This document shows, piece after piece, positions 184-55,157 of a DNA stretch of 56,776 nucleotides. Under the pieces are notes generated by a model. It was not told the origin of the DNA and searched no databases. It worked only from the letters and a program-made list of their open reading frames with translations. A program made the position numbers and the translations under genes. Within the stretch, counting starts at the first letter, position 1. Each line of letters opens with the position of its first letter. This stretch comes from Escherichia phage Seurat, in the sequence record NC_027378.1, one strand, 5' to 3'.

Positions 184-741
184 ATGAACGGGGCAAGTCA
201 AGAGCAATATGATCGTGACTGGACGAATTACATCCAGTATGCAAATAGCTTGTCCGCTGAAGAGATGGCAATACGTGACAAAGTTGTTGCTGAGTACATG
301 TTCGACTACAATTGGACTAACGCTTGCATGAGATGCGGGTTCAATGCTATGTTTGCACAGGAGCTTGGCCAACGCTTTGCCACGGACTGTTATGTTCGAT
401 GGAAGCTCAAGGAGATTGAAAGATCCCGTGTTCAACGTACTTCTGAGCAAGCTAACATTGAAGCAGACCTTGAGCGTCAGCATATCATTGAAGCATTAAA
501 ACGTGAAGCTCATTATACAGGACCGGGATCTTCTCAAGCTGCTAGAGTCGCCGCATTGGGCAAGCTTGCACAAATTTATGATTTGGATGCTCCCAAGAAG
601 GCTAAGATTGATGTTACTAACAGAGGTGGCGTAATGATAGTCCCTGCTGTAGCAAATATTGACGAATGGGAAAAAACTGCATCCGAGTCTCAACAACGAC
701 TAGTTAAAGAGACTGAAGATGGAGCTAAACCGACAACCTGA
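184..741 (+). CDS. terminase small subunit (putative)
   Basis: 185-aa ORF immediately upstream of and overlapping the large terminase; RBS AAGGGGG before the ATG; call is positional. Confidence 0.45.
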   Translation: MNGASQEQYDRDWTNYIQYANSLSAEEMAIRDKVVAEYMFDYNWTNACMRCGFNAMFAQELGQRFATDCYVRWKLKEIERSRVQRTSEQANIEADLERQHIIEALKREAHYTGPGSSQAARVAALGKLAQIYDLDAPKKAKIDVTNRGGVMIVPAVANIDEWEKTASESQQRLVKETEDGAKPTT

Positions 742-2278
742 TAACATGCCGCGAGTCGTCTGGAAACCACATCCAGGTTCACAGACACTCGCTCTATCCT
801 GCCCCGCTGATATTATCCTATACCACGGAACTCGCGGTCCTGGAAAAACGGACTGCCAGCTTATGCGTTTCCGTAAGAATGTTGGTGTAGGGTACGGTAA
901 ATTTTGGAAGGGTATTATATTCGACCGTGAATATAAAAACCTTGATGACCTTGTAACTAAATCCCAGCGTTGGTTTCCTGAATTTAAAGACGGGGCTAAA
1001 TTCCTTAGTTCTAAGTCTGATTATAAATGGGTTTGGCCTACTGGTGAAGAGCTACTGTTCCGCGTTGCTTGTAAAGAAAAGGATTACTGGTCTTATCACG
1101 GTCACGAATACCCATTTATCGGATGGAACGAATTGACAAAATATCCGGACGGGCGTTTGTTTGAAGCTATGATGTCCTGTAACCGTTCATCTTTCCTACC
1201 AGAAGATAACCCAATTATCAATCCAGATGGTACGGTTACATATTTACCGGATATCCCTCTTGAAGTGTTTGCTACCAGTAACCCGTTCGGTGCGGGGCAT
1301 AACTGGGTTAAGAAACGCTTCATTGACGCTGCACCGATGGGTAAAATACTCAGGAAGACTACGCGAGTGTTTAACCCGAGGACGCAGAAAGACGAAGATG
1401 TGGTTACGACGCAATGCCATATCTTTGGTTCGTACCGTGAAAACAAAAACCTAAGTCCAAAATATATTGCAGAACTTATGTCTATCACAGACCCGAACAA
1501 GCGTGCTGCATGGTTGGGCGGGAGCTGGGATATTACATCCGGTGGTATGTTCGATGATCTGTGGCGTAGCACTGTTCACAAAGTACGACCATTCCCGATT
1601 CCAGCGAGTTGGAAGATTACACGTTCTTTCGACTGGGGTTCTTCAAAACCGTTCTCTGTCGGTTGGTGGGCTATTAGTGATGGTTCGGATGTTGTGCGTG
1701 AAGATGGCACTACATTCTCCACGGTCCGCGGTGACCTGTTTAGGATTAACGAATGGTATGGGACCAACGGTAAAACAAACGAAGGTCTACATTTGCTGGA
1801 CTCAGAAATTGCAAGCGGTATACTGGAGCGGGAATTGGCCTGGGGTATACACGATCGTGTAGTTCCTGGTCCTGCGGATAACTCCATTTGGGATCTGGAG
1901 AACAATAACTCCACCGCTGCAACAATGGCGAAGAAAATTCGTCTTAACGGGAAGTTATACAACGGTATACATTGGAAGCGCAGTGATAAGTCTGCTGGGT
2001 CACGTAAACGAGGCTGGCAGAAAATGCGTGAGTTCCTTAAAGCTGCACTGCGGGAAGATGCGAACGGTAAACCTTTGCCCGGTCCGCGCGAGAATCCGGC
2101 AATGTACATTTTTGATAACTGCAACTATTTCTTTGAGCTGGTTCCAAGTCTACCTCGCGATGAAGTAGATCAGGACGACGTTGATACGGAATGTGAAGAC
2201 CATATGGGTGATGAAGTTCGTTATATGGTTCTGGATCAAGCTGTTTATACAGGTGTTGGCAAAACTATCGGTATTTAA
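719..2278 (+). CDS. terminase large subunit
   Basis: 519 aa; Walker A-like HGTRGPGKTD near the N-terminus; acidic nuclease-like C-terminal half; followed by the portal gene. Confidence 0.8.
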   Translation: MELNRQPDNMPRVVWKPHPGSQTLALSCPADIILYHGTRGPGKTDCQLMRFRKNVGVGYGKFWKGIIFDREYKNLDDLVTKSQRWFPEFKDGAKFLSSKSDYKWVWPTGEELLFRVACKEKDYWSYHGHEYPFIGWNELTKYPDGRLFEAMMSCNRSSFLPEDNPIINPDGTVTYLPDIPLEVFATSNPFGAGHNWVKKRFIDAAPMGKILRKTTRVFNPRTQKDEDVVTTQCHIFGSYRENKNLSPKYIAELMSITDPNKRAAWLGGSWDITSGGMFDDLWRSTVHKVRPFPIPASWKITRSFDWGSSKPFSVGWWAISDGSDVVREDGTTFSTVRGDLFRINEWYGTNGKTNEGLHLLDSEIASGILERELAWGIHDRVVPGPADNSIWDLENNNSTAATMAKKIRLNGKLYNGIHWKRSDKSAGSRKRGWQKMREFLKAALREDANGKPLPGPRENPAMYIFDNCNYFFELVPSLPRDEVDQDDVDTECEDHMGDEVRYMVLDQAVYTGVGKTIGI

Positions 2279-2289
2279 CTGGAGGGTAT

Positions 2290-3786
2290 ATGGGTATTGA
2301 TGCAACTCACCCGCTATACGACAAGTGGAAGAATGCATGGATTAAGTGCAACGACTGCTATGAGGGTGAAGATAAAATTAAGGAAGAAGGTGTTAAATAT
2401 CTACCGCCTTTAGCTTCCATGATTATTGATGGGATGAATAATCCTAATGATTTGGGCTTTCAACGTTGGCTCGCTTATCGTCTGCGTGCTAACTTCCCTG
2501 ACGATTATTCAAGTGCTGTTACAAACAATTTAGGTCTGCTGCACCAGAAGCCGCCTACAATCCAGCTTCCTCCTGAAATGGAGTACATGCGGGATCTGTG
2601 TACTGCGGACGGTGAAGACATTATTGCTCTGCTACGTCGCATCAACGAAATGCAGTTAAAAAATGGGCGTCTGGGCCTGCTACTGGACTTGCCTAAAGGT
2701 GAGGATGTAAATAACAGACCTTATATTAGCGTTTATGACGCTTTATCCATTATCAACTGGGATGATGGTAAAGATGAATTGGGCAATATCAACTTGAACA
2801 TGGTTGTTCTGGATGAAAGTGGTCCTGTACGTGTCAATCAGTTTGACTGGAAAGAAGAGAAGCGTTACCGCGTTCTACAATTAGGTCCAATGGACACAGA
2901 TGAAGTTGCAGGTGGGGCGATCTACTCCCAACATCTGTTTATTAACAATACCAATTATGATGAAGGGCAAATGATTGCTCCTTATTATAAAGGTAACACG
3001 CTGGACGAAATACCTTTCCAGTTTGTCAATACAACAGATATTACCCCAGCACCGGAAGCGCCGCCATTGTTGGGTCTTGCTAACATTTGTCTAAGCATGT
3101 ACCGAAGTGACGCGGATTACCGCCAAAGCTTGCATATGCAGGGTCAGGACACTTTAGTCGTTGTTGGTGGTACTGGGGAGAATGGGGATAAAGCCCCTCA
3201 ACGCATCGGCCCTGGCGCTGTCATTAACGTTGCTATTGGTGGTGACGCTAAATATGTAGGTGTTAGCGGTGACGGTTTGTCCGAGCAACGTCTCGCACTG
3301 GCAGCGGATAAGCAGGAAGCCCAAATTAAAGCCGGGCAAATGGTAAACAATACCAAGAGTACGCAGGAATCGGGCGAAGCCATGAAAACGCGTATTGCTG
3401 CGCGTACAGCTAGTCTGATTCGAATTGCGTATACTGGTGCGGCTGGTCTGGAAAACTTGCTGAAGGTTTGCGCTAAGTGGATGGGCGCTGATCCCGAGAA
3501 AGTTGTGGTTAAGCCTAATCTTGAATTCACCAAGAGCATGTTTAACGGTCAGGACTTTGTTCAAATTATTACTGCACGCAACCTTAAGGCTCCGATTAGC
3601 TTGCAGTCTATTCATGGTTGGCTTGTTGATCAGGGCTTAACCACACTAAGCTTTGAAGAAGAAATGGCAATTCTTGAAGAAGAGCTTAAGAAGTGGCCTT
3701 TGCCCGATGATGCTAAAGCTGATTTAAACGCAGAGCAGCAAGTAAGCAAAGATCCTAAGGAAGACGACGCTTCCGATAAAGAATAG
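2290..3786 (+). CDS. portal protein (putative)
   Basis: 498 aa directly after terminase; RBS GGAGGG; acidic C-terminus; size and position typical of portal. Confidence 0.65.
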   Translation: MGIDATHPLYDKWKNAWIKCNDCYEGEDKIKEEGVKYLPPLASMIIDGMNNPNDLGFQRWLAYRLRANFPDDYSSAVTNNLGLLHQKPPTIQLPPEMEYMRDLCTADGEDIIALLRRINEMQLKNGRLGLLLDLPKGEDVNNRPYISVYDALSIINWDDGKDELGNINLNMVVLDESGPVRVNQFDWKEEKRYRVLQLGPMDTDEVAGGAIYSQHLFINNTNYDEGQMIAPYYKGNTLDEIPFQFVNTTDITPAPEAPPLLGLANICLSMYRSDADYRQSLHMQGQDTLVVVGGTGENGDKAPQRIGPGAVINVAIGGDAKYVGVSGDGLSEQRLALAADKQEAQIKAGQMVNNTKSTQESGEAMKTRIAARTASLIRIAYTGAAGLENLLKVCAKWMGADPEKVVVKPNLEFTKSMFNGQDFVQIITARNLKAPISLQSIHGWLVDQGLTTLSFEEEMAILEEELKKWPLPDDAKADLNAEQQVSKDPKEDDASDKE

Positions 3787-37373: not shown

Positions 37374-38294
37374 TTAATCTAAAGCCTGATCAGTTTCATC
37401 GCGGAAATGCATAAAGTTAGCAAAACGCGGTTTATCTTTAACGCCATGAGGAAAGTGTTTATATGAAATAGTCCGACCTTTAATCTTGTCAGGGTTATTC
37501 CAATAATAAATCTTATCCTCTTGCGTTAATTTACCAGGACTAACGTTGATTGTATTGCCCGTCTTAACGTCTTTACAAACAAGCGTCCCGATCATACCGT
37601 TAGGAACTTTATTTTCCTGATGTGAAGATCGTGTAGTCCTTCCCAGCTCGTTAACAGTAGCTTCATTAAGATTAGTTTCACCCTCAATAATATCGAGGAC
37701 AATAGCGTCTTCCTGAATAAAGCGTTTAATACGAAGATATCCACCTTCTCGAACTGTACCGCGCCCATGCTTGTAAGGCTTGTTTGGATCACGGATAATA
37801 ATACCTTCATAACCCATATCAAGCCAGATGTTTTCCCAGTAGAGCAACTCTTCTAAAGACTTAACCACATACATCGGCACAACTTGCAGGTCGAGCAGTT
37901 CGCCTTTCGCGTGCTGTGTGGTTATAAAATCTTTCATCATGTTGTAGCGTGCTTCATAGCCCAGCTCTGCAACACTTTCCGCGCACAGATCAAAGATGTG
38001 CCATTTCAGGAACGGTTCGCCTTCAATTGTGTTTACCGCACTGGTTGTTTTACGGCACAGATCCGGGTCCGTTTCAACTCCTGCCGCAAGCTCACCATCA
38101 TAGCCCATGTACTGGGGACCGCTGAAAATTGCGCTTGTATGGCGGTTTTTAAACAGCTTTAAGCTGCGCCCTACTATTTGCCCATCCGGATTTAAACCGC
38201 GTACACCGTCGATTTTAGGCAGTATGCAGCACGGAAACTTAATCTTTTCTTCAACCGCGTCAGTTGCTAAATGTGGTTTAAATGCCATTTGCAC
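37374..38294 (-). CDS. ATP-dependent DNA ligase (minimal type)
   Basis: Nucleotidyltransferase motif I LPKIDGVRG, motif IV EGIIIR; 306 aa. Confidence 0.75.
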   Translation of the reverse strand: MQMAFKPHLATDAVEEKIKFPCCILPKIDGVRGLNPDGQIVGRSLKLFKNRHTSAIFSGPQYMGYDGELAAGVETDPDLCRKTTSAVNTIEGEPFLKWHIFDLCAESVAELGYEARYNMMKDFITTQHAKGELLDLQVVPMYVVKSLEELLYWENIWLDMGYEGIIIRDPNKPYKHGRGTVREGGYLRIKRFIQEDAIVLDIIEGETNLNEATVNELGRTTRSSHQENKVPNGMIGTLVCKDVKTGNTINVSPGKLTQEDKIYYWNNPDKIKGRTISYKHFPHGVKDKPRFANFMHFRDETDQALD

Positions 38295-52054: not shown

Positions 52055-52279
52055 ATGCGCTTACTCATGGTGTTAGGCGTTATACTTGCCGCTTTCGTTG
52101 TATTTGCAATTGTAGACTCTAAAGAAATGGAGCGGCAAAACTGCCAACGTACTGGTAACAGCCGGGATGATATTATTTGGCAATATATTTACGATGCAAA
52201 AGGTAATGTTATGTCAATGTATCCTCAGGTTATTACTGAGTATGAATATAAATGCAATGACCGTAACAGGTGGAGATAA
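52055..52279 (+). CDS. small membrane protein
   Basis: 74 aa; N-terminal TM helix. Confidence 0.45.
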   Translation: MRLLMVLGVILAAFVVFAIVDSKEMERQNCQRTGNSRDDIIWQYIYDAKGNVMSMYPQVITEYEYKCNDRNRWR

Positions 52280-52281
52280 TA

Positions 52282-52821
52282 ATGAGCTGTCAAAAATGTA
52301 ACGGAACGGGAATGGTTGATAGTGGTGGAGTTCAACCGTGGGGTGATCCTATTCTGGTGGAGTGCGATTGTTTATATCGTGAGCGCGATGCTTGGGAGCT
52401 GGATCAAGCTGGAGGTTATTACTCCCGCCATGTTATGGCAATGACATCCGAAGGTTTGCACAGCAAAGGTGATATTGCTGCGGAGCTGGGCTATCGTGAC
52501 ATGCGCATTGACCAGATAGAAGCTGAATGGCGTGCTCAGGAAGAACGTGCAGAAAATGCTGAGACGGATCTTGTCGACATGCGTGCTGCTGAGCACGCTC
52601 TATCCGATTCTTATATTCGTTTGCGTCAAATTGTTGGTGCAATGAATCCGCCTGGTGTGAGCAGCGAAGAGGTGTGGGCGCATACCGAGAAGAAGGCTCA
52701 AGAGTTGCGTGATCGCTGCGAAGCTCTGGAAGCTGTAGCAAAGGACTTCCTGCGTCGTAACGCTAACGGTCCTTTGTTCTATCGTGATTTGTATAACCGT
52801 TTTAAGGAGATTGTGAAATGA
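52282..52821 (+). CDS. zinc-finger protein (DnaJ-like CxxCxGxG motif)
   Basis: Track start is GTG at 52270; reset to the ATG at 52282; CQKCNGTG...ECDC. Confidence 0.5.
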   Translation: MSCQKCNGTGMVDSGGVQPWGDPILVECDCLYRERDAWELDQAGGYYSRHVMAMTSEGLHSKGDIAAELGYRDMRIDQIEAEWRAQEERAENAETDLVDMRAAEHALSDSYIRLRQIVGAMNPPGVSSEEVWAHTEKKAQELRDRCEALEAVAKDFLRRNANGPLFYRDLYNRFKEIVK

Positions 52822-53087
52822 TTACTGCTCAAGAAGCTCGTGAATTAAGCGATAAGCTGGATATTAGCGAAGATATTGAATTTATCAGTGACAGCATTCG
52901 TGTAGCTGCTACAAAGGGATACAATAAAGTATCACTGGTGACCAAATACGGCGCTGTTGGCAATCCTGACACTCAAGACCCAACCACTATGAAGATCGCT
53001 AAATGGTTAGCCGATTCTGGTTTTACGGTGCTATATTATCCTTCCATGGACCAACGTGATAACGAGCGTACTGAGGTAGCATGGTGA
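52818..53087 (+). CDS. hypothetical protein
   Basis: 89 aa. Confidence 0.45.
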   Translation: MITAQEARELSDKLDISEDIEFISDSIRVAATKGYNKVSLVTKYGAVGNPDTQDPTTMKIAKWLADSGFTVLYYPSMDQRDNERTEVAW

Positions 53088-53155
53088 TTGAAGAAAATAT
53101 CAAATATTGGAAAGGCTTTATTGACGAAATGTTGAAACCATTGGAGAAGAAATAA
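53081..53155 (+). CDS. translationally coupled micro-ORF (24 aa), not in the ORF track
   Basis: ATG overlaps the upstream stop (ATGGTGA) and its TAA overlaps the downstream ATG (TAATG). Confidence 0.35.
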   Translation: MVIEENIKYWKGFIDEMLKPLEKK

Positions 53156-53547
53156 TGCTATTAGTCGTCACCGGAGGTCGAGATTTTAAGCATGTGGAGT
53201 ATATTTACGCTCAATTGGATAAGCTGCATATGCAAAGAAGGATAACCACACTTCGCCACGGTGACGCTGACGGTGTTGACCGGATTTGCGCACATTGGGC
53301 GGAGCGCAACGGTATTAAAACAGAAGCATTCCCTGCCCCGTGGGACAATCTTTCCTTACCAAATACCAAGATACGGTATAATGCCAAAGGTGCTTATAAT
53401 GCACAAGCAGGCGCTTACCGCAACCAATTAATGCTGGATACTGATCCTAAACCAGATCACGCTATTGTGTTTCCTGGCGGAGCTGGTACTATGGATATGT
53501 ACAGACGGATTAAAGCATCCGGTATTCCTTACACTTTAGCGGAGTAA
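53155..53547 (+). CDS. SLOG/LOG-like Rossmann-fold protein (DUF2493-like)
   Basis: VVTGGRDF, GDADGVDR and VFPGGAGTMDM glycine-rich motifs. Confidence 0.45.
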   Translation: MLLVVTGGRDFKHVEYIYAQLDKLHMQRRITTLRHGDADGVDRICAHWAERNGIKTEAFPAPWDNLSLPNTKIRYNAKGAYNAQAGAYRNQLMLDTDPKPDHAIVFPGGAGTMDMYRRIKASGIPYTLAE

Positions 53548-53550
53548 ATA

Positions 53551-54021
53551 ATGGCTGACGTTAAAACTATTGTTGATGCAATGGACGAGTCCAAAGACTG
53601 CCAACTGAAGAAGTCGTTTGAAGTAAAACAGGTTACAGAGACTCAGTTAGTCTGTAATTTTGCGCGTTATTGTGGACTGGGCCGTGGGAAAGACTGGAAC
53701 GGGCTTATTGTTATGCCCACATCACAGATCCTCGTTTACGTCCGCAATATTGTAGAAGATCTTTTGCGTCTTCAAATAGATATTGGTGACGTAGAAATTA
53801 ACATGACCGCGAGCTCTACCATTGTGGTTAAATGGCAGTCGGGCGAGACACTGCGTTTGGAAGCGTGCCATTGTGCTAAGAGCCTACACCACCTGCGCGG
53901 TTGTCATTACCAGTTCGTTGGGTTTGTACATCCGCAAGGGTTAAGCGAGCGTACGGCGCTGGTAGCGCGTTTGCTGCTGCGTCCTTATAATAACGAGCCG
54001 GAAGTTATATACGAGGCATAA
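53551..54021 (+). CDS. hypothetical Cys/His-containing protein
   Basis: 156 aa. Confidence 0.45.
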   Translation: MADVKTIVDAMDESKDCQLKKSFEVKQVTETQLVCNFARYCGLGRGKDWNGLIVMPTSQILVYVRNIVEDLLRLQIDIGDVEINMTASSTIVVKWQSGETLRLEACHCAKSLHHLRGCHYQFVGFVHPQGLSERTALVARLLLRPYNNEPEVIYEA

Positions 54022-54022
54022 A

Positions 54023-54448
54023 ATGTCAGTAAATTTTGTCAAACAGCCAACTTTAAATACATGCGTTTCTGCGTGTTTGGCAATGATCCTTAATAAACCT
54101 GTTGAGGATGTTATTGAGGAATTTCACAATCGATATTATAACAATTGGGAAATTACTATTAGTGAATATTTGACCAAGAATGGAGTTAAACATCACTGTT
54201 GTGAAGGTGGTGGGCGTGAAACTTTGCATATGGGAGGTTTGTTCCTGTGCACGGTGCCAAGTCTTAATATTCCTGGCGCATTGCACCAGATTGTGATTGA
54301 TATGACGGATCACAAGTTTATTGTGCATGATCCAATTAAAGGATGGGAAGGTAAAAAGTTCTATGTTGGTCCGGATCAAGATCCTGAAGAGCTTGGAGCT
54401 TTTATCATTCATACTTGGGTCAAAGACGTTGAAATCCTGCCTTATTAA
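54023..54448 (+). CDS. papain-like cysteine peptidase, C39-like
   Basis: QPTLNTCVSACLAMIL matches the Gln/Cys active-site region of C39 peptidases; downstream His and Asp (HQIVI, IVHDP). Confidence 0.55.
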   Translation: MSVNFVKQPTLNTCVSACLAMILNKPVEDVIEEFHNRYYNNWEITISEYLTKNGVKHHCCEGGGRETLHMGGLFLCTVPSLNIPGALHQIVIDMTDHKFIVHDPIKGWEGKKFYVGPDQDPEELGAFIIHTWVKDVEILPY

Positions 54449-54510: not shown

Positions 54511-54696
54511 ATGACCAAACTATACGCCGGATTGTTTTTATTTGCGACGTTAATGTTCGCTGGGCTTTATACCTATACAGTAGTCGAACAACCTTCCACG
54601 GTTATCCGAATCTTTGCAAGTACAGGGCTTTGCATCTGTCTTATTCTATTTGTTTTATGCATTGTTATTATCCAAGACCAAAGGAAAGTTAAATGA
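54511..54696 (+). CDS. holin-like small membrane protein (2 TM)
   Basis: 61 aa, two TM helices, basic C-terminus QDQRKVK; RBS AAGAGGGG. Confidence 0.5.
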   Translation: MTKLYAGLFLFATLMFAGLYTYTVVEQPSTVIRIFASTGLCICLILFVLCIVIIQDQRKVK

Positions 54697-55157
54697 CCAC
54701 AATTGCGTTTGATGGAAAAGTATTAGCTGCGGACCGTGGCGTTATGCGCGGGGAAGCTGTGACTGCTTATAAGAAAGTTCATAGCGTGAATGGACATCGT
54801 GGACGGTTTTTACTGGGCTTGTGCGGTTTGACGGCATTTACCGATCAGGTGTTGCGTTATTTTAATAGCGCGGAACCTGTTAAGTTCCCTGATATTAAAC
54901 TTTACAGCAAAGATGATGATTACGGGCAAACTTGCGGTCTTGCTGTCACTCCGGAAGGTACTTGCCATTTTATTTATAATGATGGTACTTTGAGCGAGCC
55001 CATGCTGGATGGATGGGGATCTGAGGGTAGCGGTTGTGTGTTTGCTGCTGGCGCATTAGCTGCTGGTGCAAGTGCAAGCGAAGCTATTGAGCTGGCAATT
55101 AAACACACCACATGCGCATTCCTGGGAGTTGATACAATATCATTTGAGGGTTTTTAA
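54693..55157 (+). CDS. HslV/proteasome-like Ntn-hydrolase (putative Thr peptidase)
   Basis: N-terminal MTTIAFDGKVLAADRG (Thr after Met), YKKV, GSEGSGCVFAAGALAAG...SASEAIELAIK colinear with HslV. Confidence 0.55.
   Translation: MTTIAFDGKVLAADRGVMRGEAVTAYKKVHSVNGHRGRFLLGLCGLTAFTDQVLRYFNSAEPVKFPDIKLYSKDDDYGQTCGLAVTPEGTCHFIYNDGTLSEPMLDGWGSEGSGCVFAAGALAAGASASEAIELAIKHTTCAFLGVDTISFEGF

Follow-up and report, generated by a model that had tools for sequence, protein, structure and literature searches.

The small plus-strand gene at positions 53155-53547 of Escherichia phage Seurat (NC_027378.1; the window analyzed here is the whole stretch of 56,776 nucleotides) encodes a SLOG-fold protein of 130 amino acids. 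The best explanation, which we regard as somewhat probable, is that the product is a standalone accessory protein of the YAcAr (DUF2493) family, orthologous to ORF83 of phage Dru_SM1, that binds or cleaves a ligand of the phosphoribosyl-adenine type. The family, fold, and orthology of the protein are close to certain. This is a real phage gene of an already known kind and an ordinary member of a large family. Few small phage proteins without an explanation are as common as those of the YAcAr family, which circulate under contradictory labels. Linking the Seurat protein to the sole member with a genetic phenotype, directed against the Avs3 (AVAST type III) defense system, provides a correct name and a set of pocket residues that can be tested.

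The original prediction, made from the letters of the sequence, called the protein SLOG/LOG-like and named DUF2493 among the families to search for, and the profile and structural searches agree on SLOG and DUF2493. It matches Pfam PF10686 over residues 3-64 (model positions 3-64 of 66) with E = 4.9e-18 and 65.2 bits, far above the cut-off of 28.2. PF10686 is described as YAcAr, the "YspA, cpYpsA-related SLOG family," formerly DUF2493, and it was also found in 18 of 18 word-index homologues of the protein. The Pfam model stops at residue 64; the C-terminal half, which carries the AGxxRN and PGGxGTxDM signatures, is specific to the family and can be seen in PHROG 289, whose match spans residues 3-127, and in the family alignment. 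Of the other two families named alongside DUF2493 in the original prediction, neither LOG (no match to PF03641 at E <= 1) nor DprA is found by Pfam, and searches of NCBIfam and PADLOC with the protein gave no match. An AlphaFold2 model built on an alignment of 124 sequences has a mean pLDDT of 97.7 and shows the SLOG-type Rossmannoid fold of three alpha/beta layers. Its best structural matches are YpsA, the LOG enzymes, ShosA/DprA, and the SLOG domain of ThsA, with 5WQ3, 1WEK, and 3UQZ as the top Protein Data Bank (PDB) entries.

The family is large and widespread. An exhaustive HMMER search yields 5,846 YAcAr cluster representatives (50% identity) at E <= 1e-3, most of them standalone proteins of 110-160 amino acids that match from end to end. 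Homologues were found in 567 phage records that span many unrelated lineages, including phages of Klebsiella, Vibrio, Salmonella, Mycobacterium, and Rhodobacter.

The open reading frame (ORF) in Seurat runs from an ATG to a TAA over 130 codons, and the three motifs quoted in the original prediction are present in it: VVTGGRDF at residues 4-11, GDADGVDR at 36-43, and VFPGGAGTMDM at 105-115. A Shine-Dalgarno sequence, GGAG, can be read directly at 53143-53146 on the plus strand, 8 nucleotides 5' of the ATG and inside an upstream micro-ORF. The gene is under strong purifying selection, with 76 synonymous and 8 non-synonymous codon changes relative to six Seuratvirus orthologs. DNA of the region is 92-98% identical to that of CAjan, SHIN8, SLUR75, and about 30 others within Seuratvirus (Queuovirinae). 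The GottfriedDienst protein bas21_0086 is identical to the Seurat protein, and the CAjan ortholog gp82 is 99% identical. The gene belongs to a block of small plus-strand genes with the lysis cassette at its end; a scan of the window for consensus promoters and terminators returned hits at the level of the shuffled background and so carries no information on the placement among the middle genes made in the original prediction.

Public product names for the orthologs and homologues clash, among them GTP-binding domain, phosphoribosyl transferase, DprA-like DNA processing chain A, putative DNA binding protein, and threonine-tRNA ligase. For the first, which implies a P-loop GTPase, a pattern search finds no Walker A motif (GxxxxGK[ST]) and neither Pfam nor NCBIfam reports a GTPase family. 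The phosphoribosyltransferase label, carried by SLUR and mycobacteriophage records, finds no match to Pribosyltran or related Pfam families at E <= 1. The public labels, the DprA-like and threonine-tRNA ligase ones included, are without motif or profile support. An accurate product name would be "SLOG/YAcAr (DUF2493) family protein."

Orthology to Dru_SM1 provides the link to a phenotype. The Dru_SM1 protein NGRRMQZB_95 (PP596835.1) has the same length as the Seurat protein and is identical at 127 of 130 positions; the three substitutions (V14A, H47Q, and D95N) all fall outside the invariant positions. Six-frame hidden Markov model (HMM) searches find one SLOG gene per genome in the window and in Dru_SM1, and the gene order is shared: micro-ORF, SLOG gene, then a gene of 156 amino acids. 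Counting ORFs to match ORF83 with tag 95 is ambiguous (Druad1 is 44 amino acids long), and the assignment was made by content. The HHpred label, the residue numbers (R89, N90, T112, and D114), and the PDB matches given for ORF83 fit only tag 95, so ORF83 is taken to be NGRRMQZB_95. The top PDB matches that EVADES (10.1101/2025.06.06.658234) gives for ORF83, 1WEK, 5WQ3, and 3UQZ, are the same three as those of the Seurat protein.

The genetics come from Ojima et al. (10.1101/2024.04.14.589459), and all statements made here about Dru_SM1 knockouts follow the accessible portion of that preprint. Single-ORF knockouts of Dru_SM1 were plated on Escherichia coli carrying the Gao library of defense systems. 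On AVAST type III hosts, knockouts of ORF55 (a DNA ligase), ORF72, ORF83, and ORF84 infected less well and formed small plaques; the defect was strongest for ORF84, with an efficiency of plating (EOP) of 1e-4. ORF83 is named as an anti-AVAST III gene, and the EVADES database lists it too. The ORF83 knockout is viable, so the SLOG gene is non-essential. As for the host side, the large terminase is recognized by Avs1-3, and in Avs3 it activates a non-specific DNA endonuclease, the Cap4 nuclease; Pfam did not detect this nuclease in the Avs3A fragment, and the identity of the effector is taken from the literature. The original prediction had noted that SLOG/LOG domains occur in conflict systems and had suggested a possible tie to countering host signaling. 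The ORF83 genetics support the part in conflict, but Avs3 is a nuclease that senses terminase rather than a nucleotide-signaling system. That the SLOG protein itself makes a genuine counter-defense contribution seems rather probable.

The ligand-binding prediction starts from conservation across the 124 diverse family members in the alignment. Eight residues are invariant (G7, R9, G36, D42, G86, R89, N90, and G111), and a further set is nearly so: G8, A38, G40, W48, A61, W63, A85, M93, F106, G108, T112 (123 of 124), and M115. The position of D114 is Asp in 106 sequences, Asn in 11, and His in 6. The family signatures, GGR after strand 1, GxAxGxD, AGxxRN, and PGGxGT, are thus all present in the Seurat protein and invariant or nearly so in the alignment. 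In the AlphaFold2 model, the conserved residues all sit at strand-to-helix junctions, the usual ligand crest of a Rossmann fold. About 22% of members do not have the beta-hairpin insertion at residues 66-80 (window positions of about 53350-53394), which is made of strands 73-76 and 79-82, includes the conserved G79 and Y81, and may cover the crest as a lid or specificity element.

The likeness to LOG enzymes is confined to part of the site. When the family profile is aligned by hhalign with E. coli PpnN, DHAIVFPGGAGTMDM pairs with HGIIIFPGGVGTAEE (15 columns, probability 32%). This places PGGAGT on the PGGxGT of PpnN, which argues that the loops are homologous, in line with the resemblance that the original prediction had seen in the motif. 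The resemblance does not extend to the catalytic residue. With PGGAGTMDM set against the PpnN sequence PGGVGTAEE, the position of the catalytic Glu is taken by Met115, which is Met in 113 of the 124 sequences, Cys in 9, Ala in 2, and never Glu, and the full LOG profile, as noted above, is unmatched. An AlphaFold 3 model of ORF83 with AMP in EVADES has an ipTM of 0.9, with contacts from R89, N90, T112, and D114 that superpose on R115, K116, T175, and E178 of the LOG enzyme Cg1261. The proposed equivalence of the invariant R89 to the LOG arginine is based on that superposition.

The proposed mechanism would place the ligand at the crest formed by the C-terminal ends of the beta-strands. The crest would be built from G7-G8-R9, G36-x-A38-x-G40-x-D42, A85-G86-x-x-R89-N90, and P107-G108-G109-x-G111-T112-x-D114 and would bind a ligand of the phosphoribosyl-adenine type, for instance AMP or a derivative of ADP-ribose (ADPr). 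The bound ligand would then be cleaved or sequestered. Catalysis, if any, would use a variant LOG site in which Arg89 and Asp114 replace the canonical Arg and Glu. On hosts that express Avs3, ORF83 is reportedly required for infection at full strength. A small nucleotide or ADPr-type molecule as the ligand is modestly favored, while hydrolysis rather than mere binding is doubtful. Fusion partners are consistent with ADPr chemistry: DUF4326-YAcAr fusions recur (six cases), one weak YAcAr-NADAR fusion falls under the Pfam cut-off, and EVADES reports homologues of ORF83 with DUF4326 in giant viruses of amoebae. Iyer et al. 2022, from the Aravind lab, predicted that viral YpsA-like SLOG domains act on ADPr derivatives, with DUF4326 and NADAR as ADPr-processing partners. 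A search of the window with an HMM of the DUF4326 domains from the fusions finds no DUF4326.

Several points weigh against this account of an accessory protein that handles a nucleotide. The catalytic Glu of LOG is absent, and the acidic D114 falls one residue earlier in register and is itself replaced by Asn or His in 17 of the 124 members. Neither the protein nor the family profile gave a significant match when searched by sequence against the PDB, where no solved YAcAr structure turned up, and no biochemistry of any YAcAr protein was found in the searchable literature. Many members lie beside replication proteins or are fused to them, which would point to DNA rather than a free nucleotide as the ligand. 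Avs3 uses no known nucleotide signal, so a nucleotide-processing enzyme is left with no obvious target in Avs3. The phenotype itself comes from a single preprint and from Dru_SM1 only (10.1101/2024.04.14.589459), and its authors caution about polar effects. Finally, the Shine-Dalgarno sequence of the next gene is inside the SLOG gene, so a deletion of the SLOG gene is possibly polar.

That next gene deserves separate attention. The ORF84 homolog (53551-54021, plus strand) encodes 156 amino acids and begins 3 nucleotides past the SLOG stop. Its GGAG (53541-53544, plus strand) is in the last two SLOG codons, 129-130, and 6 nucleotides before the ATG at 53551. The protein is identical at 154 of 156 positions to Dru_SM1 tag 96, which from gene order we infer to be ORF84, and the family is restricted to Seuratvirus-like phages. 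Compared by hhalign with the window ORFs of at least 90 amino acids (108 in all), the ORF84 family profile matches residues 44-137 of the phage's own large terminase subunit, TerL (719-2278, plus strand), with E = 1.2e-5; the next best match has E = 0.025. TerL is therefore the sole window protein with significant similarity to the family, and it belongs to the class of protein that Avs3 senses. A pairwise BLASTP comparison of the ORF84 homolog with TerL gives E = 2e-4. The aligned stretch opens with the final residue of the TerL Walker A motif, where GTRGPGKT stands against SFEVKQVT, and TerL FIGWNE stands against FVGFVH. Because SFEVKQVT and FVGFVH replace the Walker motifs, the P-loop lysine and the Walker B acidic residues are gone from the ORF84 homolog, which looks like an ATPase-dead copy of the ATPase domain of the phage's own TerL.

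Since Avs3 senses the large terminase and ORF84 resembles it, the strong phenotype of the ORF84 knockout can naturally be read as the loss of a decoy, and the protein is a candidate Avs3 decoy. It may act as one, a hypothesis that draws on a model of medium confidence, a sequence match of modest strength, and the genetics of one preprint. A broader proposal would join the two genes into a translationally coupled anti-Avs3 module, in which ORF84 is an ATPase-dead TerL paralogue that serves as decoy and the SLOG protein either cooperates with it or owes part of its phenotype to it; we put this forward only tentatively. If true, a dead terminase-domain decoy set against a terminase-sensing, NLR-like receptor would possibly be a new principle of evasion. 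The searchable literature yielded no description of a receptor decoy derived from the same protein that the immune sensor recognizes. The ribosome-binding site (RBS) of ORF84 inside the SLOG gene is in any case a caveat on the phenotype reported for ORF83.

A different account of the conserved crest would make the SLOG protein a DNA-associated factor that, in the manner of DprA and ShosA, binds either single-stranded DNA or a nucleotide that is part of DNA. By aiding replication or recombinational repair, in parallel with the phage DNA ligase, it would let phage DNA better survive the Cap4 nuclease of Avs3, for which DNA degradation is the way of killing. The ligase gene, ORF55, is the second Dru_SM1 gene named as anti-AVAST III, and the window has it at 37374-38294. 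Family members are fused to an SF1B helicase (Pseudoalteromonas phage H101; ICP1 HelB), to a DnaG CHC2 zinc ribbon, and to DciA, and others adjoin SSB and an SF2 helicase (in a prophage), a DnaB-like helicase (mycobacteriophage BTCU-1), or a primase (Vibrio phages). A survey of viral contexts covered 79 loci from 34 lineages, with 126 immediate neighbors, and found no replication gene that consistently adjoins the SLOG gene. No neighbor gene family is conserved across the 34 lineages, the most-shared BLAST cluster reaching three of them, and no Pfam family occurs in more than two of the neighbors, with no Macro, NADAR, or Que genes among them. The comparison with DprA also fails at the level of the protein, a lone domain of 130 amino acids without the flanking domains of DprA: Pfam gives no match to DprA/Smf (PF02481), and hhalign against E. 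coli Smf is insignificant (E = 0.41, probability 0.14%). EVADES likewise reports that ORF83 is without the residues used by DprA for dimerization and for binding RecA, with an AlphaFold ipTM of 0.18 for RecA. The DNA-associated role is judged unlikely.

The arrangement of the SLOG gene and ORF84 allows a simpler account of the genetics, in which deleting the SLOG gene removes the RBS and coupling of ORF84, the real anti-Avs3 factor, and the SLOG protein has some other job. The placement of the ORF84 GGAG within SLOG codons 129-130, the 3-nucleotide intergenic gap, and the resemblance of ORF84 to TerL, the Avs3 ligand, all fit this account. So does the more severe ORF84 knockout, alongside the polar effects that the authors concede, and hundreds of phages without ORF84 carry a YAcAr gene. 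Against it, the anti-defense genes named in the accessible text of the preprint include ORF83 but leave out ORF84, and the naming comes in a section that follows the complementation tests, which implies that ORF83 was complemented in trans. On this evidence, a purely indirect phenotype is improbable, if only a little more so than a role on DNA.

The SLOG protein could also be a sponge or hydrolase for immune signals derived from ADP-ribose, as in an anti-Thoeris factor, with the effect on Avs3 secondary. The fusions to DUF4326 and NADAR and the prediction of Iyer et al. 2022 point in this direction. The idea rests on prediction, however: Macro and NADAR genes are absent from the 126 neighbors, the PADLOC models are unmatched, and Thoeris is not among the systems reported for the Dru_SM1 screen in the accessible portion of the preprint. 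We consider it a long shot.

The last suggestion of the original prediction, a tie to 7-deazaguanine chemistry, has next to no chance of being right: the phage does encode FolE, QueD, QueC, and QueE, and LOG-type enzymes do cleave modified purine nucleotides, which could suit processing of a 7-deazaguanine nucleotide or base for phage DNA modification, but those genes map to 26.8-31.2 kb on the minus strand, in a different gene block separated from the SLOG gene by 22 kb or more; the homologues, in 567 phage records, extend far beyond Queuovirinae and have no 7-deazaguanine genes among the 126 neighbors; and knockouts of Dru_SM1 ORF41-48 affect BREX and restriction-like systems, while the ORF83 knockout is listed, in the accessible text, under AVAST III only. 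The distance and strand, the wide distribution, and the different knockout phenotypes together lead us to reject a specific link. As a separate observation, in E. coli K-12 (NC_000913.3, 2925348-2927672) the LOG-family gene ppnN (ygdH) is directly downstream of queF, which encodes 7-cyano-7-deazaguanine reductase. This is the sole adjacency of a SLOG-superfamily gene and a 7-deazaguanine gene that was seen, and it is probably a coincidence.

Upstream of the SLOG gene, the coupled micro-ORF that the original prediction had pointed out does exist (53084-53155, plus strand). It encodes 23 amino acids, VIEENIKYWKGFIDEMLKPLEKK. The starting GTG at 53084 shares bases with the stop of the preceding gene (ATGGTGA), and the closing TAA does so with the SLOG ATG (TAATG), so that the micro-ORF is translationally coupled at both ends. 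Frame, start, and stop are intact in six of six aligned Seuratvirus sequences, and every difference in KS_W4 is synonymous. In GottfriedDienst, which has another gene upstream, a consensus Shine-Dalgarno sequence, AAGGAGG, stands 7 nucleotides before the same GTG. The product is probably a real small protein, and none of the public records inspected annotates it. The upstream neighbor of the SLOG gene is variable among Seuratviruses, and a gene of 89 amino acids is missing in GottfriedDienst. Farther upstream, an ORF of 183 amino acids at 52270-52821 (plus strand) has a CxxCxGxG-like motif near its N terminus (MSCQKCNGTGMVDSGG...ECDC), which suggests a zinc finger, and matches PHROG 34533.

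Downstream, Dru_SM1, SHIN8, and Skure have one additional small gene downstream of the ORF84 homolog, ahead of the gene that comes next (at 3440-3646, 1424-1630, and 1425-1781 of their respective loci). By gene order this is ORF85 of Dru_SM1, whose knockout lowers the EOP 1e-4-fold on qatABCD hosts. The window is without it (54021-54023), and a gene of 141 amino acids (54023-54448, plus strand) directly follows the ORF84 homolog. Its putative product is peptidase-like, with a weak N-terminal match to Peptidase_C39 (E = 0.034) and a match to PHROG 4049. A gene of 154 amino acids at 54693-55157 (plus strand) encodes a putative peptidase-like protein of the HslV family (PHROG 1040, E = 5e-32; weak Pfam Proteasome match).

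Set beside known systems, the Seurat locus is closest to that of Dru_SM1, from which it differs in its upstream neighbors and in lacking the extra small gene after ORF84. Among solved structures, the closest fold is that of Bacillus subtilis YpsA; the Seurat protein, like its homologues in most phages, is small and standalone. LOG enzymes such as PpnN differ in carrying their own Lys beside the Arg, where the Seurat protein has Asn90, and in their size, about 180-450 amino acids as opposed to 130. DprA/Smf and ShosA have flanking SAM or winged-helix domains that the Seurat protein lacks, and they give no significant profile match to it. The SLOG domain of ThsA, the sensor of 3'cADPR in type I Thoeris, shares 11% identity with the Seurat protein and is fused to a SIR2 effector in a defense protein of the host, whereas the phage protein is free.
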